From Alphaproteobacteria bacterium (lineage in GTDB: Bacteria; Pseudomonadota; Alphaproteobacteria; Bin95): a stretch of 64,000 nucleotides of DNA. The stretch is from assembly GCA_965205265.1 (NCBI GenBank), contig CBDBGH010000003.1, positions 1,888,001 through 1,952,000 on the forward strand. Direction: 5' to 3'. Numbering within the stretch: position 1 is the stretch's first letter; every line of letters begins with the position of its first letter. A program made the translations under genes and the position numbers. The notes under the pieces were generated by a model. That model searched no databases, was not told where the DNA came from, and saw nothing but the letters and a program-made list of their open reading frames with translations. Positions 8,130-60,589 of this stretch are shown here, piece after piece.

Positions 8130-8130
8130 G

Positions 8131-8355
8131 TCAGTCGAGGTTTTTCAGCCGGTCGGCGATCCAGAGCTTGATGAGCGACTGCCGGGGGACGCCGTGCAGT
8201 CTCGCCTGCCGGTCGAGAGCGGCGACCACCCAGGCCGGGAAGTCCACATTGACCCGCCTGGTCCCCAGATTGACGCGCTCGGCGCCGGACCAGTCCACAT
8301 GCGCGCTCACGTCCTCCCCGTCGTCGAATGCACGGTCGAACTCATGCGCTTTCAT
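8131..8355 (-). CDS. brnA: CopG/RHH antitoxin (BrnA-like)
   Basis: MKAHEFDRAFDDGED..RRVNVDFPAWVV..LDRQA..GVPRQSLIKLWIA; overlaps the toxin gene. Confidence 0.85.
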   Translation of the reverse strand: MKAHEFDRAFDDGEDVSAHVDWSGAERVNLGTRRVNVDFPAWVVAALDRQARLHGVPRQSLIKLWIADRLKNLD

Positions 8356-8605
8356 AGCGTTCCACCTCCTCCTTGCGGGCCCGGCGAACCGAGATAAGCC
8401 GTATGCGGTCGCCGCGGCGCGTGCAGATTGCCGACCAATGCCGTCCTCCGATCCTTCCGATGGCTATAAAGCGCGGTTCGTCGACCGTCCGCGCCGGCGC
8501 TTCGAGCAGCCAGGGATCGTCCCACAACGCCTGCGCATCTTCGAAGCCGATGCCGTGTTTCGCCTTGTTCCCCGCGCTCTTGTCCGGGTCGAATTCGAAA
8601 TCCAT
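8342..8605 (-). CDS. brnT: BrnT-family ribonuclease toxin
   Basis: MDFEFDPDKSAGNKAKHGIGF..IRLISVRRARKEE. Confidence 0.9.
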   Translation of the reverse strand: MDFEFDPDKSAGNKAKHGIGFEDAQALWDDPWLLEAPARTVDEPRFIAIGRIGGRHWSAICTRRGDRIRLISVRRARKEEVERYESA

Positions 8606-8839
8606 GTACATAATTTATATCAAAAATATTCAGATTCAATGCATTATTGGCCCTGCCGGGAACGCCGCCTCCCCTTCCCCCGCATTCCCGCCTCCAGCGG
8701 CGCGCGCCGGTCGCCCATTGCGCGAACGTCCAACCGGACCGTGCGGCCGCCTCTCGGAGAAGCCGGTGAGTTTCCCTGCCTTGGCGCCATTTGGAAACAG
8801 TGTCATGTTCTATTTTCCTGAAATAATTCTGGAATATTG

Positions 8840-8867
8840 CTTGCATTATCAAAAATTGTGTTACAAT
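8840..8867 (+). promoter_or_regulatory. Putative sigma70-type promoter (CTTGCA and extended -10 TGtTACAAT)
   Basis: AT-rich island; a homologous promoter CTTGCAT-N15-TATGAT lies on the - strand at 35681-35708. Confidence 0.55.
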
Positions 8868-8883
8868 GGGCGGCAGGAGGAAG

Positions 8884-9086
8884 GGAGCGGCGCTCGCGGG
8901 GCCGCTTCGTTCCGCCGTTCGCGCCGACGCGAAAAAAGCCCCCGATTCGGCCAACGGGTGAAGTGCGCCCTGCGTCCGGCCCGCGCGCGCGGGCGCACCC
9001 GGGCAATCAGGCGCGCGATTCGCGCCGCCGCGAAACGTGCGCCCACGGGCGCGGGCACCCACGCAGGATACGCGCGAATCAGGGTC
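8884..9086 (+). ncRNA. Candidate structured leader/ncRNA, copy 1
   Basis: Collinear with 35483-35675 (-); shared blocks CCCCGATTC, GAAGTGCG, GGGCAATCAGGCGCGCGA, CGCGCCGCCGCGAAACG, CGCAGGAT, ACGCGCGAAT..GGGTC. Confidence 0.55.
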
Positions 9087-9210
9087 CCGACGCTTCGGGT
9101 AGCCGGGCGGCGGAAGGAGAATTGGAACGGAATGGAACGAAACGCGATGGAGGAACGACATGCAGGATGCGGAGGGACGGGGCTTCGGCGAAACGGTCCC
9201 GATGCTCACA

Positions 9211-9240
9211 TGCTCCTCTCCCGCTTGCGGGAGAGGAGCA
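9211..9240. repeat. REP-like palindrome TGCTCCTCTCCCGC-TT-GCGGGAGAGGAGCA
   Basis: Perfect 14-bp inverted repeat; CTCTCCCGCTTGCGGGAGAG resembles a common proteobacterial REP type. Confidence 0.7.
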
Positions 9241-9316
9241 AACAAGGAACAAACGAAGGAGAGGTAAAACTTCATACCCAAACAGGCCACAGCCTATGCG
9301 CCCCGCGCATGCAGAT

Positions 9317-9386
9317 CATGACATCGCATGACACATCGCAGGGGGGGCCGCCGGGCGCGCATGACAAAACATGACATCCCATGACA
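9317..9386 (+). repeat. 10-bp-phased CATGACA repeats (9317, 9327, 9360, 9370, 9380)
   Basis: Read directly; 9361-9384 encodes MTKHDIP-stop. Confidence 0.85.
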
Positions 9387-31410: not shown

Positions 31411-31723
31411 CGCCCCGGACGCCGGGAGCTTGCGGCGTGTCATGGGATGTCGCAACTGCCCAGGATGCCGGTCCTAGAGCACGATTCCGCGGCGTCGCTT
31501 TGCGGCCGGAGGCCGGCACCCCTCTTGCGTCACCCCGGACGGCGCGCCAGCGCCGAGCCGGGGTCTCCGCGCGAAGGGTTGCCCCTGTTGCACAAGGCCC
31601 CGGATCGGGGTCCGGGGCGACGCAAAAGGAGCACCGAGCCTGCACTGGGCAGTTACGGAATGTCATGTTTGGGGATTACAAAGATGACTTGACGCTTGCC
31701 GCAACTCCTGCCAGCGTCGCGGG

Positions 31724-32209
31724 ATGGATACCATCGAAGAAGCTGTCGTACAGTTCATCGTCCGCGAAGCCACGTCCCATGGGTTCCGTCATCTGGCATG
31801 GCTCGGCTTCCTTGGAATATTGACCATGTTCTTTGGGCGACGATGGCGGCAAATGCGGCGCGACATAGAATGTTTGAAGAAGACGGTGGGGGCGCCTTCA
31901 CCGCAAGTCGCTATGCCAGCCCTCGTCCAGACCTACATTTTCAATGCCGCCGATCCCGACCGCGAGCGCCAGCTTCGAGACGCGATAGAGTCAGAGACCG
32001 TTCGCGGCTTACAAGACACGGTCAGGCGTCTTCCTCAATTTCCGCTCGGCGACGGCCACAGTTACGCCCCGCTACCGGACGGCACGAACATTGTGACGAT
32101 GGCTGACGGCACAATGCGGCTTGCGTTGCCTGCGGAGGTTTCGTTTGAGGCTTCTGCTGGACTCCCAGAGGTCAGATTTTCTCCGGTTGGGGAACACAGC
32201 GATGCGTAG
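31724..32209 (+). CDS. Hypothetical protein with N-terminal TM helix (IS1595 cargo)
   Basis: 161-aa ORF inside the IS; hydrophobic LAWLGFLGILTMFFG. Confidence 0.55.
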   Translation: MDTIEEAVVQFIVREATSHGFRHLAWLGFLGILTMFFGRRWRQMRRDIECLKKTVGAPSPQVAMPALVQTYIFNAADPDRERQLRDAIESETVRGLQDTVRRLPQFPLGDGHSYAPLPDGTNIVTMADGTMRLALPAEVSFEASAGLPEVRFSPVGEHSDA

Positions 32210-32285
32210 CTTGCTTCCGCTGCCCCTCTGTGCCGGGGAGGCTCCCCGAGGGGGAGGAACAGGACCCTCGGGGAACCGGACCCGG

Positions 32286-33119
32286 CTATTGTCGAGTCAA
32301 CGAAAACGCGCCTGCGATTCCGCTGCGCTCGAACACGCCGCCGGCCTCTTCGTGATTCGGGCCGTAGAACCGTCCCTCAAGCCCACCGCTGCCGCTGAAC
32401 TCACCACCCCGCATCGAGATGCCTTGCCAGCTAATGTCGCTGCTGCGAGTGCCGGAAGTGTCGGCAATGTTCGTGAACGCGAGGTCGAGGGTCTCCGCCG
32501 CAAGGTTGGCGGTCATCGCTGCGTCGCCAGTGACTTCTCGGCCGAGACTCGAACTGCCGACCCTCACGCCGGCCATCGCGCCTGTCCATATCGCGCTGCC
32601 GGAGACCGGGTTCGACCCGCTGCCCATCCCGAGGGACGCGGGAAAGGCGAACTGGACGTCAACGCCTTGAATGGTCGTCGAGCCGCGAAGCGGCGTCCCG
32701 GCGTTGTAGTTTCCCCAAACGCCGAAGGTGTTGAAGTTGAAGCCATCACCGCTGGCGGTCGCCCGGCCTGTCTGTACACCGTTGCGAGTCTGCTGGCCGG
32801 TGATCGTCACGGCCGGCCCGTTCGGATCGACATCGCGCAGATCGAGCGTTGCGCTCTCGCCTTGGAATGTCACCGTGCAGGTCGAGCCGCTGCATGATGA
32901 GTTCGCCCGGAACAACGAGCCTTGCACGGCAATGAGTACATCGCCGACAACGACGGTGTCGGGCGCGGCGCCGGGGTCCGTAGGGGTCGTGGGGGCTGGC
33001 GGGTTGCCGGGGCCGGTCGGCCCTCCGTTCATGGCGGTTCCGCCGCCTCCCCCGCCTCCGCAGGATGCGAGAACGAAAACAGCGGCCAACGCCGCCAGAG
33101 TGCGAAAAGTCATGGACAT
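32286..33119 (-). CDS. Surface lipoprotein with TbpB/HphA-like C-terminal beta-barrel (IS1595 cargo)
   Basis: Lipobox VLAS-C, Gly/Pro linker, C-terminal GRFYGPNHEEAGGVF..IAGAF. Confidence 0.8.
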   Translation of the reverse strand: MSMTFRTLAALAAVFVLASCGGGGGGGTAMNGGPTGPGNPPAPTTPTDPGAAPDTVVVGDVLIAVQGSLFRANSSCSGSTCTVTFQGESATLDLRDVDPNGPAVTITGQQTRNGVQTGRATASGDGFNFNTFGVWGNYNAGTPLRGSTTIQGVDVQFAFPASLGMGSGSNPVSGSAIWTGAMAGVRVGSSSLGREVTGDAAMTANLAAETLDLAFTNIADTSGTRSSDISWQGISMRGGEFSGSGGLEGRFYGPNHEEAGGVFERSGIAGAFSLTRQ

Positions 33120-33288
33120 TCCCTTCCTGTTACACCCAGCGGAGTCGCCGGGCTGTTGCAGACATTCCCAGGAATCTGGAAGGTCCCCGCCTATTCGCCG
33201 GGTGCAGGGGAGCTACCCCAACACCGGGTTCCGGCTGTTCTATTCAGCGGGCAACCCGGCACAGGCCGAGAGCCCTAGGAATGTCTGC
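33115..33288 (-). promoter_or_regulatory. Structured 5' leader of the cargo lipoprotein
   Basis: 15-bp stem between 33274-33288 and 33158-33172; GGGAATGTC repeated over the RBS/start at 33115-33123. Confidence 0.45.
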
Positions 33289-33360
33289 GAGAGTCAGTTT
33301 GCGGGGGGAAAATCATGGATGCAAGCGGGGTATAGACAGGACCAAGAAGGAGTATCGGCC

Positions 33361-33570
33361 ATGACCAGAGGCGTTCCGGTGCTGGACCCGAAGGTTCACC
33401 TTGTCGGCGCAACGCCGGTGGCGCTCGCGCAGGCGCTGTTCCGCAACAAGAACCCGGCGCTACGCCCGGCCCGCGTTCGACAGGCCGTTGTCAGCGACGA
33501 GGTCGCGATAGAGAAGCCGGCGGCCGACGAAGCGGGCGACAGTGTCCCGCATCTGGGCGAGGGTTCCTGA
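33361..33570 (+). CDS. Small hypothetical protein convergent with and overlapping the transposase 3' end
   Basis: AAGGAG RBS; MTRGVPVLDPKVHLVGATPVALAQALFR. Confidence 0.45.
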   Translation: MTRGVPVLDPKVHLVGATPVALAQALFRNKNPALRPARVRQAVVSDEVAIEKPAADEAGDSVPHLGEGS

Positions 33571-34437
33571 GTCCCTGATGTTGTGCTTGCCGGCAAACTC
33601 ATCGGCATACCGATGCAGGTGCTTCGGGCTCATCTTGTGGAAGGTGCCCTTGTGAGCGCGCTTGAGCATCGACCAGAACGACTCCATGCCGTTGGTGTGG
33701 ATCATGCCGTCCACATATTCACCGACGCGGTGGTTGACCGACTCATGGGCGAAATCCGTACCGAGACCGACATAGCTGCGGTGTTCGTCGGTATAGACGG
33801 CCGCGCCGGGCTCTGCGTGTTCGCGCACGAAGCCTTGCAAAGTCGGCTTCTTCGTATCCGGCACGACTTCGACGCGGACCTCATTACTGTCGCGGTCCTT
33901 CATGCCGACAACCGCCGTCATGTGGGCCGTGCCTCCGCTTGTGAGCGTCTTGCGCTTCGCCTTCGGCATATTGACCTGACGACCGCCGAAATACGACTCG
34001 TCCACTTCTACCGGGCCGTCAAACTGCTCGTCGTCATCTTCAGCCCATGCCTGCCGGATGCGGTGAAGCATGAACCATGCGGTCGGCTGCGAAACGCCGA
34101 TGTCCCGCTGGAGTTTCATAGACGAAACCGACTTGAGCGAAGTCAGGACAAGGTAGATGGCAATCGCCCACTTGCGGAGCGAGACTTTCGACCGCTGCAT
34201 GGGCGTCCCGGTGCGGACAGAGAAGTAAGACCGACAGCCGCCGCACCAGTAGGGCATCGGCTTGCGGTTCTTCGTCTCCGTCGTCTCGGCATTGCCGCAA
34301 TGCGGGCAGTGCCGTCCCTTCGGCCAGATCGCTTCCTCGAACCATGCGGTCGCGGTCGCTTCATCGGGGAACATGTCAAACAGTTCAGGCAGCGTCAGCC
34401 CTTCGCGGTCGGCTCTTCCGGGGGCTTTCTTCGTCAC
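33460..34437 (-). CDS. IS1595-family transposase
   Basis: Zinc finger CPHCG..WCGGCRSYFSVRTGT; VEVDESYFGG; YTDE; HTNGMESFWSMLKR. Confidence 0.95.
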   Translation of the reverse strand: MTKKAPGRADREGLTLPELFDMFPDEATATAWFEEAIWPKGRHCPHCGNAETTETKNRKPMPYWCGGCRSYFSVRTGTPMQRSKVSLRKWAIAIYLVLTSLKSVSSMKLQRDIGVSQPTAWFMLHRIRQAWAEDDDEQFDGPVEVDESYFGGRQVNMPKAKRKTLTSGGTAHMTAVVGMKDRDSNEVRVEVVPDTKKPTLQGFVREHAEPGAAVYTDEHRSYVGLGTDFAHESVNHRVGEYVDGMIHTNGMESFWSMLKRAHKGTFHKMSPKHLHRYADEFAGKHNIRDSGTLAQMRDTVARFVGRRLLYRDLVADNGLSNAGRA

Positions 34438-34488
34438 GGGCGCGTCTCCCTTCAACACTCTGGAATATAGGGAGGATTGCAGCCCATG

Positions 34489-35424
34489 TCAAGTCATCTT
34501 TGTAATCCCCTCATGTTTTGTCATGGTCGGGTGCGAAACCGGGGTTTCGGGGCGGGTTGAAGGGGGCGGCCCATTCTCGAGCCGGTTGAGGCTGTCGGCC
34601 TGGCGGCGTTCGATGTTTTCCGGCGACCAGGGGTCGTGGATCTCGGCATAGCCGTTGCGGCGCTGGTAGAGCCAGTCGGTTTCCGCGCCCTCGGCCCTCT
34701 CCTCCTCGCCCGGGCGGTCGCCGTCGGCCCACTCGCCGGGGAACCGCTCCGGGTCGTAGGTGTCTTCGGGCGGGTCGTCAGCGAGGGGCAGGTCGTTTGC
34801 CGGAGGCGGCGGCGGGTCGAAGCGGACGGGCAGGCTCTCGCGCTCCTCGACGGCCGCCATGAGCCTTGCGGCAAGCTGCGCATGGGCGGCCCCGCCGAAG
34901 CCTTCCCCTGCCTCCATCGCCTCCCTGTTCCCGCAATGGCGGGCAAGGGCGCGCTCGGCGCGGGCACGGCCATTGCGCACGGCTTCGGCGAGGGGTCCCG
35001 GCACGGTGCCGGCCTCCTGCGCCTCGCCGGCCTCGATCTCCCCGAACTCGTCCTCCTCCGGCATCGACCAGAGCGCCGCCCGGTTGGCCGGCTGCGTCAG
35101 CCCCGCAATCTCCGCCTGGAAGCGGACGATCCGGACCATCATGTAGGCAGAGCCGCTCGCCACCGCCGCATCCCAGGCCTGCTCCAGGCGGGCGAGCACG
35201 ATCTGCGCCTCGTCCCTCTCGGTGCGCCGCCACGACATGCGGATGCGCCGCACCCGCTCGACGATCCAGGGGCGTTCCAGCAGGGCGGAGCCGGTCTGCC
35301 TTGCGGAGCGTTCGGCATAGCCGGCGCGCCTTGCGGCGTCTGCGGCATTGCCGGAGGCTGTGTAGTGGCGGCAGAAGGCTTCCTGCCGTGAGGAAAGGGA
35401 GAGGGTCGGGTCGAGCACGGGCAT
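34489..35424 (-). CDS. Orphan terminase small subunit-like protein with long acidic tail; 3' end interrupted by IS1595 (original end HDIP-stop at 31653-31670)
   Basis: LSSRQEAFCRHY..GNAADAARRAGYAERSARQTGSALL resembles the TerS HTH signature; GAAGGAG RBS. Confidence 0.75.
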   Translation of the reverse strand: MPVLDPTLSLSSRQEAFCRHYTASGNAADAARRAGYAERSARQTGSALLERPWIVERVRRIRMSWRRTERDEAQIVLARLEQAWDAAVASGSAYMMVRIVRFQAEIAGLTQPANRAALWSMPEEDEFGEIEAGEAQEAGTVPGPLAEAVRNGRARAERALARHCGNREAMEAGEGFGGAAHAQLAARLMAAVEERESLPVRFDPPPPPANDLPLADDPPEDTYDPERFPGEWADGDRPGEEERAEGAETDWLYQRRNGYAEIHDPWSPENIERRQADSLNRLENGPPPSTRPETPVSHPTMTKHEGITKMT

Positions 35425-35482
35425 GGGTGCGGCTCCTTCGTTCCGGTTCGCGTTCATCCGGCACACTGCCCCGGCGGGGAGC

Positions 35483-35675
35483 GACCCTTATTCGCGCGTC
35501 ATCCTGCGCGGGCGCCTGTGCGCGGGCGGGCGCGTTTCGCGGCGGCGCGGTTCGCGCGCCTGATTGCCCGCGCGCGAGGCAGGCTGAGGACGCACTTCGC
35601 CTGTCGGCTGAATCGGGGTCGTTCCGCACCGGGCCGGCGCGGGCGGGAAGCGGTCCGCGCGGACTCCACTCCCTC
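35483..35675 (-). ncRNA. Candidate structured leader/ncRNA, copy 2 (5' UTR of the TerS-like gene)
   Basis: Collinear with 8884-9086; pair-preserving substitutions in several stems. Confidence 0.55.
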
Positions 35676-35680
35676 GGACC

Positions 35681-35708
35681 ATCATAGCACATTTTCTGAA
35701 AATGCAAG
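35681..35708 (-). promoter_or_regulatory. Putative promoter CTTGCAT-N15-TATGAT with extended -10 TG
   Basis: Homologous to 8840-8867; AT-rich upstream tract. Confidence 0.55.
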
Positions 35709-35863
35709 TCATATAGAGAAATATTACATAATTTTTACGAACAATTTGCTCCCTGTATCGACCGGCCGCCGGATTCATGCCGGATTGCGCCAGCGGCGCC
35801 CTGCTCCGGCCTAGTGCGGTATCCGCCCGGTGTGAAACGAGGAGCGCTTCCATCCGGGGGTCT

Positions 35864-35996: not shown

Positions 35997-36072
35997 GGGG
36001 CTTATATGGATAGGTTGACAACAGGTTTGGGAGGCTTCGCACCTTCTCTCCGGCGTCCAACCCGCCCCCATA

Positions 36073-36161
36073 TCGTCATACCCGGACTTGCTCCGGGTAT
36101 CCATGCGGCCGTCCGGCGGCAGCGGTGGAGAGAGATACCCGGAACAAGTCCGGGTATGACG
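36073..36161. repeat. REP-like palindrome GTCATACCCGGACTTG..CAAGTCCGGGTATGAC
   Basis: Same family as the 10.9-11.3 kb cluster. Confidence 0.85.
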
Positions 36162-36240
36162 GAGGGGACGTGACGGAGGGGGCGTTGAGGTATGACGGAA
36201 GAAATGTCGTCGGTCTCCCCCGTCAACCTATCTTTGTAAT

Positions 36241-38156
36241 CCTGACTTCGACGGTTGGGCTGACTTCTGACCGATCTCGCGTCTGGAGTTTTCAGTAAAG
36301 CCAATGAGTTGGCAGTTGCGGTGCGGTCAAGCTGCGTTGTAGTGCCTAGTAAATCTTTGAGACTGTCAATGCCTCCGCCACGCGCTACACTCCCCCCATG
36401 TTCGTGCGCATCAAGACCTCCCCCAACAGCCCGCGACGCTCGGTCCAGATCGTCGAGGCCGTGCGCGACGGCGGCAAGGTCCGACAGCGCATCGTCCGCC
36501 ATGTCGGCGTGGCCATGGACGAGGACGAGCTCGAGCGCCTGAGGCAGCTCGGCGAGTACGTCAAGGCGAAGCTGGAGGACGAGCGTCAGCCGGCATTGTT
36601 TGCGCCCGAGAAGATCGCTGAGCAGGCGATCCGTGTCGGCCGCCGGGGGGACGGCAAGGAGGAACTCCCGGTCGACCTCAAGCAGCTTGAAGAGGAGCAG
36701 CGCCTGATCACAGGCATCCACGAGGTCTATGGCGAGATCTACCGGCTGCTGGGCCTCGACGCGCTGCTGCCGCGCTCGCGCTACCGGGCCTCCCATGACG
36801 CGCTGTTCCATGTGGTGATGGCGCGGGTAGCCAACCCCGACAGCAAGCGGGGCAGCGTGCGCCGGCTCGAGGAGGACTTCGGCGTGAGTCTTCCGCTCGA
36901 GAAGGTCTACCGGATGATGGATCAGCTCGACGCGACGGTGATCGAGCGACTGCGCACGCGCGTCGGCGAGGCGAGCCGGTCGCTGCTGCCGGAGCCGGTC
37001 GCGATCCTCTTCTTCGATTGCACCACGCTCTACTTCGAGACGGCCGCCGAGGACGAGCTTCGCCAGCACGGCTTCAGCAAGGACGGCAAACACAAGGACT
37101 CGCAGGTTCTGCTGGCGCTGATGGTGACGCGCGAAGGGCTGCCGATCAGCTACGAGGTCTTCCCCGGCGCCACCTACGAGGGACACAGCATGGTCCCGGT
37201 CCTGCAGGACATGCAGCGCCGCCACCAGGTGGAGCGCACGGTATGCGTGGCCGACCGGGGCATGCTGAGCGCCGACAACCTCGACGCCATGGACGCCATC
37301 GGCGGCGAGTATGTCGTCGGCGCGCGGCTGCGCAAGCTGCCGCTCGCGCTGCTGGGGCAGGTTCTCGACCCCGGGACCTATGCCCCGCTGGAGGGCTCAC
37401 AGGACCGCCGGGTCGGCGAGTGGGAGTACAAGGGCCGTCGCCTGATCGTCGTCTTCTGCCCCCAGCGCGCACGCAAGGACGCGCACGAGCGCCGCCATCA
37501 GGTGGAACGCCTGCTCGACAGGCTGGCCCGCAGCGACAATCCCAGGGAACTGCTCTCCAATCACGGGGCGAAGCGCTTCATCGCCGTCGAGGGCGACGCA
37601 CGGCTCACGGTGAACCCGGAGAAGATCGCCGAGGCCGCACGATGGGACGGGCTCACCGGCGTCATCACCAATCTGCGCGACGCGCGCGTCACCGAAGTGA
37701 TGGCTCACTACCAGGGGCTCTGGCAGGTCGAGGAGAGCTTCCGGATCACCAAACACGACCTGAAGATACGTCCCATCTGGCACTGGAACCCGGACCGGAT
37801 CCGCGCTCACATCGCCATCGCCTTCCTGGCCTTCGCCTGCGTTCGACACCTTGCGTACCGCGTCGCCATCCAGAAGCGGCGGATGTCCCCGGAGGTCATC
37901 CGCTCCGCCCTCGTCCACCGCCAGTGCTCCCTGCTGCGCTGTCGGCAATCGGGCAACCGCTACGTCATCCCCTCGAAGCCGACACCGGCGGCGGAGCAGA
38001 TTTACGCAACCATGGGGCTGCCCCTGACGATCACCCCGTATCAACTCGCCTGACCGTCGACGAAGCACGGCTCGAAGAAATGCCGGATGTAGTGCCTAGC
38101 CGAAATGAGAACCAGGCAATATCAACTACTTATGCGAATCAACCGTCGAAGTCAGG
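36241..38156 (+). mobile_element. IS1634-family insertion sequence with 82-bp flanking direct repeats
   Basis: 17-bp TIR CCTGACTTCGACGGTTG; 36159-36240 is identical to 38157-38238. Confidence 0.93.
36398..38053 (+). CDS. IS1634-family transposase
   Basis: LFFDCTTLYFE, GFSKDGKHKDSQV, VADRGMLS, LWQVEESFRITKHDLKIRPIWHW..RIRAHI. Confidence 0.95.
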   Translation: MFVRIKTSPNSPRRSVQIVEAVRDGGKVRQRIVRHVGVAMDEDELERLRQLGEYVKAKLEDERQPALFAPEKIAEQAIRVGRRGDGKEELPVDLKQLEEEQRLITGIHEVYGEIYRLLGLDALLPRSRYRASHDALFHVVMARVANPDSKRGSVRRLEEDFGVSLPLEKVYRMMDQLDATVIERLRTRVGEASRSLLPEPVAILFFDCTTLYFETAAEDELRQHGFSKDGKHKDSQVLLALMVTREGLPISYEVFPGATYEGHSMVPVLQDMQRRHQVERTVCVADRGMLSADNLDAMDAIGGEYVVGARLRKLPLALLGQVLDPGTYAPLEGSQDRRVGEWEYKGRRLIVVFCPQRARKDAHERRHQVERLLDRLARSDNPRELLSNHGAKRFIAVEGDARLTVNPEKIAEAARWDGLTGVITNLRDARVTEVMAHYQGLWQVEESFRITKHDLKIRPIWHWNPDRIRAHIAIAFLAFACVRHLAYRVAIQKRRMSPEVIRSALVHRQCSLLRCRQSGNRYVIPSKPTPAAEQIYATMGLPLTITPYQLA

Positions 38157-38425
38157 ACGGAGGGGACGTGACGGAGGGGGCGTTGAGGTATGACGGAAGA
38201 AATGTCGTCGGTCTCCCCCGTCAACCTATCTTTGTAATCTCCTATCGAAGGACGGCCGGACTTCCGGTTCAACATGAACGGGTCCTGCTCTAGCCGTTCG
38301 AGGGCGAGGACAGGCGGAGTCGGGGCGGCAGTCCTTGCGCCTCCTTTGTCACGATCCAACAAAGTCGGATGTCGCAATAATCCGGCCTATAGTTGTCGAA
38401 CGGACAAGGACAAGGAGCGTGCGAA

Positions 38426-60497: not shown

Positions 60498-60589
60498 TGG
60501 CGGACAGGGAGGGATTCGAACCCTCGGTACGCCTGTTGACGTACGACGGATTAGCAATCCGCTGGTTTAAGCCACTCACCCACCTGTCC
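60498..60589 (-). tRNA. tRNA-Ser (GCT)
   Basis: GGACAGG acceptor stem, anticodon arm GCGGA-TTGCTAA-TCCGT, long variable arm, GGTTCGAATCC, encoded CCA. Confidence 0.97.

Follow-up and report, generated by a model that had tools for sequence, protein, structure and literature searches.

In phages of the pac type, the pac site lies within the end of the gene for the small terminase (TerS), and the TerS of SPP1 and SF6 (G1P) consists of an N-terminal helix-turn-helix (HTH) followed by long helices. Satellites of the PICI/SaPI type carry a TerS of their own; they are single-copy elements of 5-18 kb with integrase, replication, and regulatory modules. As PMC10893049 describes for phage T4, gp16 binds to a pac sequence located at the 3' terminus of the gene that encodes it, and recombination between this sequence and a homologous one produces gene amplifications, for which a twin-ring synapsis model is put forward. 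This is the precedent that comes nearest in mechanism to copying linked to TerS. T4 amplification is a phage process, occurring under selection and between two sites a few kb apart, whereas the units considered here are dispersed on a chromosome with no phage. It should be noted that gp16 belongs to another TerS family than the protein considered here.

This protein is encoded in a window of 64,000 nucleotides (the whole stretch of DNA that was analyzed) of the 5.7-Mb genome, designated G000, of an uncultured alphaproteobacterium. The features of the unit that contains its gene, and of a second family member in the window, are as follows.

31653-35747, minus strand: whole long-form unit (head, promoter, leader, and TerS-like coding sequence with phased tail), interrupted by an insertion sequence; delimited by alignment of seven genomic copies
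35681-35747, minus strand: AT-rich head, conserved in the seven copies, its motif and hexamers at a fixed position in family 5' ends
35744 to 35739, 35707 to 35702, and 35689 to 35681, minus strand: head elements TTGTTC, −35-like TTGCAT, and, after a 15-nt spacer, extended −10 TGnTATGAT
35428-35675, minus strand: GC-rich leader of about 230-250 nt, placed by conservation, with an inferred 5' end
34489-35466, minus strand: open reading frame containing the TerS-like gene
34519-35427, minus strand: main part of the TerS-like coding sequence, codons 1-303 of the restored 307, assigned by Pfam, PHROG, and Foldseek
34519-34525, minus strand: CATGACA, first heptamer of the tail
31671-34510, minus strand: IS1595-family insertion, with a transposase (33460-34458) and two passenger ORFs
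31653-31670, minus strand: last codons (..KHDIP) and stop of the restored coding sequence, from computed removal of the insertion
31661-31667, minus strand: second CATGACA, 10 bp past the first once the insertion is removed
31657 to 31651, minus strand: degenerate third unit, CGTAACT, after the second heptamer
31438-31444, minus strand: further CATGACA, about 215 bp downstream, recognized by comparison with copies B-E
8823-9386, plus strand: second family member, a short form with promoter, leader, filler of about 200 nt, and tails T1 (9317-9333) and T2 (9360-9386)

The IS1595-family element is 2840 bp long, is present as a single copy in the genome, and is bounded by an 8-bp target duplication (TCATGTTT, at 31663-31670 and 34511-34518). 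Its removal joins 35427 to 34519 with 31670 to 31653 and gives a protein of 307 residues with the end, ..HPTMTKHDIP-stop, that had been predicted in the sequence-only reading of this DNA. Translation probably begins at the ATG at 35427, which has AAGGAG upstream and is kept in all seven copies. The same reading had recognized a TerS-type HTH at the N terminus, with which the profile and structure searches agree. Pfam Terminase_2 (PF03592) matches residues 25-99 of the ORF with 50.5 bits against a cut-off of 26.1, the match covering the N-terminal HTH only (profile positions 2-73 of 141), and PHROG 51 (terS) matches the protein with an E-value of 6.6e-14. The best Foldseek matches in the PDB are the SF6/SPP1-like G1P DNA-binding domains (4zc3, 2cmp, and 3zqq), with a probability of 1.00, 39-40% identity over about 50 residues, and rmsd values of 0.8-2.1, but E-values of only 0.07-0.6. 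In the AF2 model, the HTH (residues 13-50) is followed by long helices, as in G1P, those at residues 53-107 having pLDDT values of 66-89, and confidence is low past residue ∼110. By homology, the N terminus is identified as a small-terminase DNA-binding domain of the SF6/SPP1 type and the protein as phage-derived. The N-terminal part is followed by an acidic, Pro-rich extension of about 200 residues, which is unlike the SPP1/SF6 proteins; an Atlas search with residues 115-295 returned nothing above 0.81. Only the HTH was recognized by Pfam, AF2, Foldseek, and Atlas, and these gave no catalytic domain or transposase fold.

The heptamers of the tail are spaced by exactly 10 bp, one helical turn, and every family member ends in such an array. 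In the long form, the array falls within the last codons of the TerS-like gene itself, an arrangement like that of the SPP1/SF6 small terminases, whose presumed recognition site is likewise made up of short, helically phased repeats and lies within the gene or at its end. Copies B-E have three heptamers side by side, and the CATGACA at 31438-31444 was probably the third of them at first, later moved away by a REP-like insert that copy A has too. The chromosome contains 87 clusters of at least two heptamers, and in 84 of these the 10-nt spacing is the only one, which places the phased tail noted in the sequence-only reading far above chance. Among family proteins at 64-89% identity, the C-terminal tail varies, yet the His of the final ..HD motif, which corresponds to CATGAC in the DNA, is kept in all and the Asp in at least 90%, a pattern that points to conservation of the DNA itself.

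At the other end of the unit, TTGCAT and TGnTATGAT with their 15-nt spacer (35707-35681) form a sigma-70-like candidate promoter. A generic promoter scan did not flag this site; however, when 69 family 5' ends were put to a strict two-hexamer test at the corresponding position of the alignment, 34 passed, compared with 14.7% of shuffles, and 20 of the 34 score 11/12. A promoter belonging to the unit had been proposed earlier and is supported by this comparison, but the conserved, structured leader proposed with it is upheld in its conservation only. The leader and the second copy (8780-9200) have a mean column identity of 76%, and a search of the genome with the leader gave 41 listed matches. 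A specific RNA structure is not supported: the z-score of the minimum free energy is −1.18, with 21 of 200 shuffles folding equally well, and the conserved core contains no compensatory changes or covariation. At gathering thresholds, Rfam 15 matches only a tRNA (60501-60589) in the whole window, leaving the leader without a match, and at E ≤ 1 it gives two chance-level matches on six short units.

The sequence-only reading called for a count of paralogs and described the gene as an orphan. It is in fact one of seven full-length copies, and the large repeat family to which they belong, in which leader and tail frame other cargos too, had been missed. The seven intact long-form units are each about 1.25 kb long and 94-100% identical, contain ORFs of 300-308 residues with 94-100% protein identity, and share sharp boundaries, with unrelated housekeeping DNA on their flanks. 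A search with nhmmer gave 107 matches; when merged, these define 85 units, of which 55 have both ends, so that the chromosomal family comprises about 85 units, the seven intact long ones and about 78 related ones, the TerS-like units being the protein-coding form. The common plan is an AT-rich head with the sigma-70-like promoter, a GC-rich leader of about 230 nt, a variable cargo, and the CATGACA tail. The cargo is the TerS-like protein, an acidic protein of about 197 residues, or almost nothing, and the short units are about 420-700 bp long. Some units have the promoter and leader followed by one to three cargo-plus-tail modules, as tandem reiterations of cargo and tail. Each cargo class has its own leader variant, which argues against an integron-like shuffling of cassettes. 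One internal-deletion form (leader, first 22 codons, and tail) is present as five diverged copies, indicating that internal-deletion derivatives have propagated. Contigs break at copies of the unit.

Synonymous changes predominate among the seven TerS-like copies. Of 21 pairs, 19 have a dN/dS ratio of 0.10-0.38; the other two are pair A-B, with a ratio of 0 and nonsynonymous changes absent, and pair D-E, nearly identical, with a ratio of 1.39 (6 nonsynonymous and 2 synonymous changes). Over the N-terminal 112 codons, each pair has 0-1 nonsynonymous versus 0-11 synonymous changes. These ratios indicate purifying selection on the copies.

The family is like insertion sequences and their MITE derivatives in being multicopy, dispersed, and intergenic, and in having long coding forms beside many short, two-ended deletion forms. 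It is unlike them in lacking a recognized transposase fold and in its asymmetric ends, a promoter head and a direct-repeat tail; neither terminal inverted repeats nor a target duplication was found in alignments of 7 long and 16 short units, 69 5' ends, and 62 3' ends. Intergenic flanks at the compared loci are too diverged for a clean empty site to be defined. Copies W and C share the same sequence from a point slightly upstream of the −35 element onward and differ in the preceding ∼20 nt, so gene conversion could explain part of the apparent unit boundary.

A further likeness to insertion sequences is that presence and absence differ between relatives. In a set comprising G000, 16 congeners, and 24 other relatives, G000 contains 103 phased pairs of the form CATGACA-N3-CATGACA, and the 12 congeners counted with the gene contain 112-319 each; the four congeners without the gene have 0, 0, 1, and 23 pairs, and the other relatives have none in 23 cases and one in the remaining case. 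A reversed-pattern control gave 0 in all genomes. There are exceptions to the co-occurrence of gene and array: G009 and G014 have 264 and 112 phased pairs yet fragments of the gene only, and G008 is the congener with 23 pairs and no match to it. G000, G007, and G006 have the unit at locus L055, and G015, G003, and G013 lack it there (gaps of 61, 55, and 31 bp); G000 and G005 have it at locus L026, where G014 has an 89-bp gap. These comparisons indicate gain and loss of units at orthologous loci. From species to species, the DNA flanking the units is rearranged, and the tails have accumulated other insertion sequences.

Homologs of the TerS-like gene often lie on metagenome contigs of 1.05-1.3 kb. 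Close homologs retain both the leader and the repeats, and terL lies beside none of the homologs examined, findings that favor the sequence-only reading over a phage remnant. More distant homologs, from other metagenome-assembled genomes (43-49% identity), have three or four phased CATGACA at the ORF end in L133 and L139, and the genomes of L133, L139, and L142 contain 44-52 phased pairs; the heptamer tail is by this distribution ancient. The 230-nt leader is restricted to the genus, the distant homologs having leaders of about 40 nt. In G033, from another family, a distant TerS-like gene is multicopy as a promoter-plus-ORF unit of about 900 bp, in which no heptamer arrays were found, and the genome of L156 and L157 also has multicopy TerS-like units, with ends unlike those of the present family.

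"Orphan" remains apt in one sense, since no large terminase was found in G000. Five Pfam models (TerL_ATPase, PF03354; Terminase_6N, PF03237; Terminase_3, PF04466; GpA_ATPase, PF05876; TerL_nuclease, PF20441) gave 0 matches each, and matches in control genomes; portal and capsid genes were likewise not found in the genome with the models used, a further difference from the SPP1/SF6 systems, as are the dispersed, multicopy state of the gene, its own promoter, and the number of its presumed sites (100-300 per chromosome). The neighboring genes encode aldolase II, TauD, MucR, MiaB, and Lnt, and no phage genes were found near the TerS-like copies. A decayed prophage fragment that kept terS would account for the phage origin of the protein, but it is contradicted by seven intact units of the same ∼1.25 kb under purifying selection amid unrelated housekeeping DNA, as well as by the missing terL and phage neighbors, and is extremely improbable. 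A gene transfer agent was rejected on the result with the five TerL models. The units are like PICI/SaPI satellites in being non-phage elements with a terS-like gene and a presumed cognate site away from any terL, but a PICI-like satellite was also rejected, the unit having 1.25 kb, one ORF, and no integrase, replication, or repressor modules, and the family having seven copies and about 78 related units.

The lack of a resident terL also bears on the possibility of pac mimicry, in which, on infection by a pac-type phage, the protein and some 100-300 chromosomal arrays would capture its large terminase, either aborting the infection or causing unit-bearing host DNA to be packaged and transduced; any terminase partner would then have to come from outside. 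The SF6/SPP1-type domain, the multicopy gene under purifying selection, and the array at the 3' end of that gene, like the pac sequence that PMC10893049 describes for T4, are consistent with such a role, as is the precedent of PICI-type satellites with a TerS of their own. A search of IMG/VR with the TerS-like protein gave no close phage homolog (four loci, the best with 36% identity over 68 residues), and 10 viral contigs with triple arrays have no detectable TerS-like match and, in the flanks read, no other features of the family. Because pac mimicry also leaves unexplained the intragenomic spread, the propagation of deletion derivatives, the fact that each unit has a promoter and a leader, and the units with other cargo, we consider it unlikely.

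The framing of three kinds of cargo by the same head and tail, together with the tandem reiterations of cargo and tail, suggests another possibility, that head/leader and heptamer tail are the ends of a non-autonomous element (MITE- or mobile-insertion-cassette-like) mobilized by a recombinase encoded elsewhere, the TerS-like and acidic proteins being passengers or regulators. Insertion sequences are very abundant in the genome (one family has 63 copies, another 34, and a third ∼17), and IS110-type transposases are present in 13 of 13 array-rich genomes; however, IS110 is abundant in the array-free G003 too (10 matches), and the sole IS110 copy adjoining a tail is an insertion into a unit. IS200/IS605 TnpA (Y1) is present in only one of 17 genus genomes and IS91 (Y2) in three, G000 having only a 40-residue fragment, and no unit in G000 has a larger cargo, except for one with an insertion sequence inside. 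Strong purifying selection on all seven copies would be unexpected for a mere passenger, as would independent multicopy TerS-like units with different ends (G033 and the L156/L157 genome). We therefore regard mobilization in trans as possible but doubtful.

A promoter-like site on each unit and a leader core conserved without covariation, as expected of a protein-binding site, could also reflect a host regulon of small transcription units, about 85 in number and regulated together, that would be genes for sRNAs or micropeptides, with the TerS-like protein exapted to act on them as a nucleoid-associated protein or transcription factor. T1 tails repeatedly contain a micro-ORF of 15 codons (MPE..Y.P.AC..), but its substitutions are mostly non-synonymous, and units that were not found in 3 of 16 congeners, are nearly missing from a fourth, and are variable at orthologous loci are unlike a core regulon. 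This interpretation appears quite improbable.

The reading that we prefer, with a probability of roughly 0.4, is that the family is a selfish repeat element in many copies, and that its protein, derived from a terminase, binds the arrays and so drives copying or recombination. This reading is based on the observed architecture, copy numbers, co-occurrence of gene and array, purifying selection, propagated derivatives, and negative searches for terL. Among the three options of the sequence-only reading, a small mobile unit fits best, copies, presence/absence differences, deletion derivatives, and homologs on short metagenome contigs being in its favor and the missing target duplication, inverted repeats, and recognizable catalytic domain against it. 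The TerS-like protein, probably as a ring oligomer, would bind the phased CATGACA arrays and bring them together, as proposed for T4 gp16 with pac-like sites; synapsis would promote copying or recombination of units, and the breaking and rejoining of DNA would fall to enzymes of the host or of another element. Short units and acidic-protein units, having the same head and tail, would ride on the TerS-like protein in trans. That units with this head and tail encode an acidic protein unrelated to the TerS-like one implies that the TerS-like gene is not needed in cis and could itself be cargo. A literature search found no published description of this repeat element. It is a tentative and rather doubtful further step to regard it as a new class of bacterial mobile element, in which a terminase-derived, ring-forming DNA-recognition factor takes the place of a transposase, synapses arrays, borrows host recombination or replication, and supports protein-less derivatives (100-300 arrays per genome).

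If the preferred reading is correct, a protein with which viruses recognize their genomes now serves as the driver, or at a minimum as the dedicated DNA-binding factor, of an intragenomic repeat family, and this would be a way of moving DNA or restructuring genomes that belongs to none of the transposase and recombinase classes known so far. The predicted pairing of one small protein with a phased 7-bp site is directly testable in vitro. Annotation pipelines will label such genes "terminase small subunit" and may flag false prophages, and the repeated units break short-read assemblies. With rearranged flanks and insertion sequences accumulating in their tails, the arrays are recombination-prone landmarks and may thus shape the genome architecture of these uncultured bacteria.

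The TerS-like gene in the window lies in a unit split by an insertion sequence, and a shorter member of the same family is also present. The relevant features are as follows.

8823-9386: second family member in the window, short form, corresponding to the CATGACA motif noticed earlier at 9361-9384
31653-35747, minus strand: long-form unit with head, promoter, leader, TerS-like coding sequence and CATGACA tail
31671-34510: IS1595-family element of 2840 bp that carries a transposase (Pfam E 1.3e-41) as well as two passenger ORFs and is flanked by the 8-bp duplication TCATGTTT
34489-35466, minus strand: TerS-like ORF as called, with an N-terminal small-terminase HTH

The IS1595-family element interrupts the final codons of the TerS-like gene, and its removal gives a protein of 307 aa with the C terminus ..HPTMTKHDIP and a stop at 31653, as the sequence-only reading had correctly described; the likely start is an ATG at 35427 that follows AAGGAG and is kept in all copies. 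The first passenger ORF (31724-32209, plus strand, 161 aa) has no clear family, and the second (32286-33119, minus strand, 277 aa) is lipoprotein-like, with a TbpB_B_D match that is below threshold (22 bits versus a cut-off of 26). The 2840-bp element has one copy in the source genome, G000, in which the window spans 1888001-1952000 of contig C3. A joint in Logan contigs that bypasses the element like an empty site carries the letters of paralog A and hence is no empty site of this locus, and a 4223-bp skip in such contigs stems from a 92%-identical repeat elsewhere.

Several lines of evidence agree on a TerS-type HTH at the N terminus, as initially proposed. Pfam Terminase_2 matches the ORF with 50.5 bits (cut-off 26.1) over profile positions 2-73 of 141, and PHROG 51, "terminase small subunit," matches with E 6.6e-14. 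An AlphaFold2 model from an input alignment of 21 sequences (mean pLDDT 63.6) is confident only for residues ∼11-110 and predicts the HTH at residues 13-50 with long helices after it. The top Foldseek matches in the PDB correspond to the DNA-binding domain of G1P, the small terminase of SF6/SPP1-like type (4zc3, 2cmp, and 3zqq; probability 1.00, 39-40% identity, rmsd 0.8-2.1), with E values of only 0.07-0.6 because the matched stretch is short. An Atlas search with residues 115-295 gave a top value not above 0.81, and a complex prediction for four copies of residues 1-125 (score 0.27, mark 0.42) is counted neither for nor against.

The gene had been regarded as a single orphan, but G000 contains seven full-length copies with 94-100% protein identity, and these are exactly the Terminase_2 matches found genome-wide. 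Alignment of the seven with their flanks reveals a common unit of ∼1.25 kb, which begins at a TTGTTC ∼40 nt upstream of the −35 site and ends with the third of the CATGACA heptamers overlapping the stop codon; beyond these limits the flanks are unrelated. The family extends beyond these seven copies. A search of G000 with the leader region listed 41 matches, a profile from 16 short units gave 107 hits that merge into 85 units (55 with both ends), and the chromosome carries 87 CATGACA clusters, defined as at least two heptamers within 25 nt (43 on the plus and 44 on the minus strand), of which 84 have 10-nt spacing exclusively. None occurs on the two small replicons (193 and 43 kb), and the units are rare at 4.5-5.46 Mb of the chromosome (3 of 87 clusters).

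Each unit has four parts in the order head, leader, cargo, and tail. The head is AT-rich, with TTGTTC followed by a site resembling a promoter: a −35 of TTGACA or TTGCAT, then 15-16 nt of spacer, and often TGn with TAnnAT. Of 69 5′ ends, 34 score positive for it under a strict test, versus 14.7% of shuffles, and its aligned position is constant. The leader, ∼230 nt and GC-rich, has a highly conserved core, and to this extent its earlier description as conserved holds; a particular RNA fold, and with it the label "structured," does not find support. The MFE z-score is −1.18, Rfam gives no family match, RNAalifold yields only 14 pairs from 61 leaders aligned with MAFFT, none altered on both sides, and a column-pair scan returns (CG)n-type pairings with no compensatory change; the conserved core thus lacks compensatory substitutions. 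Hairpins in the variable 5′ part appear compensatory by eye. The leaders of distant homologs are just ∼40 nt, and the long leader is therefore a genus-level addition. A promoter and a conserved leader could also be expected if the units formed a host regulon, which we consider improbable. The tail comprises a T1 module (∼75 nt, with two heptamers at its end) and a T2 module (three heptamers), often ∼43 bp apart.

Three classes of cargo occur. Seven copies encode the TerS-like protein; an acidic protein of ∼197 aa, unrelated to it, has 9 copies in G000 by blastn; and units of ∼420-700 bp have almost no cargo. The acidic protein has no Pfam domain and contains two aromatic-acidic repeats; its 155 homologs in the same genome set are kept at 53-95% identity, often on 0.6-1.2-kb contigs. 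Its units include 646459-647592 and 3308703-3309651 of the G000 chromosome and 7 more (loci L093-L095). The small reading frames of the ∼420-700-bp units seem to reflect constraints on the nucleic acid more than genes. Most T1 tails (window 9270-9320, for example) contain a 15-codon frame, MPE..Y.P.AC.., that ends in heptamer 1; the substitutions in this frame are mostly non-synonymous, and it may reflect a DNA or RNA constraint rather than a peptide.

The TerS-like gene occurs in 12 of 16 other genomes of the genus, with 7-19 matches each, often at contig ends. Phased pairs of heptamers were counted in the same genomes and in relatives; chance expectation, by our own arithmetic for 14 fixed bases, is ∼0.04 per genome.

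Phased pairs (CATGACA-N3-CATGACA) per genome
G000: 103
12 congeners with the TerS-like gene: 112-319
4 congeners without the TerS-like gene: 0, 0, 1, 23
24 relatives outside the genus: 0 in 23, 1 in one
Reversed pattern as a control: 0 in every genome

The TerS-like gene and the heptamer arrays thus travel together. The congener with 23 pairs (G008) has no TerS-like match, and its pairs may be relics of a lost family. Homologs with 43-49% identity in other MAGs also have their own promoter, and in two of these distant homologs (L133 and L139) the ORF ends in 3-4 phased CATGACA; the genomes of L133, L139, and L142 have 44-52 phased pairs. Multicopy TerS-like units also exist in two more lineages, where the ends differ and phased pairs number 0-3. 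One of these, a genome of another family in the same class (G033; L085-L091), has a distant TerS-like gene with 34% identity over the N terminus, in at least 6 copies aligned mostly at 83-100% column identity; its ∼900-bp unit runs exactly from the promoter-like site to the stop codon, and heptamer arrays are absent. Among family proteins of 64-89% identity, the sole constant C-terminal feature is ..HD.., encoded by CATGAC, which points to conservation at the DNA level.

There are no phage genes within ∼10 kb of the window gene, whose neighbors are a class II aldolase, a TauD/GBBH-like dioxygenase, MucR, MiaB, Lnt, and insertion sequences. The local absence of terL, remarked on previously, extends to the whole 5.7-Mb genome, in which five large-terminase Pfam families have zero matches, with control genomes positive. 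That the gene is a prophage remnant, as its terminase ancestry might suggest, is accordingly very improbable. IMG/VR contains no close relatives of the protein, only 4 remote loci with at most 36% identity over the HTH. In one GC-rich viral contig there (L179, 11226-11252), a small ORF that looks excisionase-like by eye overlaps at its end with three phased (C)ATGACA; triple arrays are also found in nine other viral contigs, and phased ATGACA repeats therefore recur in phage regulatory DNA. The arrays could act as pac mimics directed against incoming phages, an explanation that we consider unlikely, though less so than a host regulon.

All seven TerS-like ORFs are intact, and dN/dS is 0.10-0.38 in 19 of 21 pairs. 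Pair A-B has zero nonsynonymous changes, and the near-identical pair D-E has a ratio of 1.39 (6 nonsynonymous, 2 synonymous); the first 112 codons show 0-1 nonsynonymous versus 0-11 synonymous changes per pair. A deletion form with the leader, the first 22 codons, and the tail exists in 5 diverged copies and was therefore copied after arising. At two orthologous intergenic sites, each between convergent genes, a unit is present or absent by species, and sequences flanking a unit in G000 are far apart in several relatives, usually beside another copy. The two loci compared across the genus provided no alignable junction for an empty site or target duplication; the one candidate for a paralogous empty site in G000 proved to be another repeat within a tail. 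From cumulative GC skew, neither an origin nor a terminus emerged that would serve to assess replication-strand bias. Transposases of IS200/IS605 type (1 of 17 genomes) and IS91 type (3 of 17) are practically missing from the genus, and IS110-type genes are common, yet abundant in an array-free congener too. Despite 9 RVT_1 matches in the genome, retrotransposition is an unlikely route, since the promoter is part of the copies and no gradient of 5′ truncation runs through them, and integron-like cassette exchange was set aside because each cargo retains its own leader variant.

G000 is very IS-rich, with repeat families of about 63, 34, 17, and 11 copies, and other mobile DNA accumulates in the heptamer tails (window 35997-38157 and several chromosomal units). 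A ∼245-bp repeat and the 63-copy DDE_Tnp_1 IS (window 36240-38157) adjoin CATGA in several units, and the tail of the window copy holds a REP-like element besides the IS1595 element. Immediately upstream of the short unit, at window 8130-8610 on the minus strand, a pair of small overlapping ORFs resembles by eye a toxin-antitoxin pair of BrnT/BrnA type. Chromosomal positions in G000 are as follows.

690258, 1205632, 1589172, 2837636, 3619637, 3856207, 4009076: tail hot-spot sites
4157642-4158777: IS110-family element of 1136 bp inserted into a short unit, in its REP-like hairpin and immediately upstream of the T1 tail
894328-895463: second copy of this IS110-family element

A site within the 3′ end of terS is typical of pac phages, and three heptamers spaced by one helical turn would match the contacts made by neighboring DNA-binding domains around the rim of a TerS ring. 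For T4, PMC10893049 describes a sequence at the 3′ end of the gp16 gene to which gp16 itself binds. Recombination between this site and a homologous one yields gene amplifications, mutation of the sequence abolishes them, and twin rings are proposed to synapse two sites. We therefore propose, with a probability of roughly 0.4, that the TerS-like protein binds the heptamer arrays and pairs them, which would promote copying, conversion, and rearrangement of the units, with cutting and joining supplied by other enzymes. The main weaknesses of this proposal include that the binding is putative, that the protein has no identified catalytic activity, that no junction signature was found at the units, and that units with the same ends but another protein exist. 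The last also bears on the possibility that the units are cassettes mobilized in trans, which we judge a doubtful alternative but the strongest of those considered.

Our literature search, mostly at title and abstract level, turned up nothing on multicopy TerS-like units or on the heptamer arrays. The combination consists of a TerS-only unit, 100-300 phased heptamer arrays in each genome, the failure to find terL in the genome, and protein-less derivatives. By the features that define insertion sequences, satellites, and GTAs (the last judged by terL) it fits none of them, and it probably does not fit integrons either; the mechanism is the part that we infer. The observed facts are compatible with a selfish repeat family that has its own dedicated, terminase-derived DNA binder.
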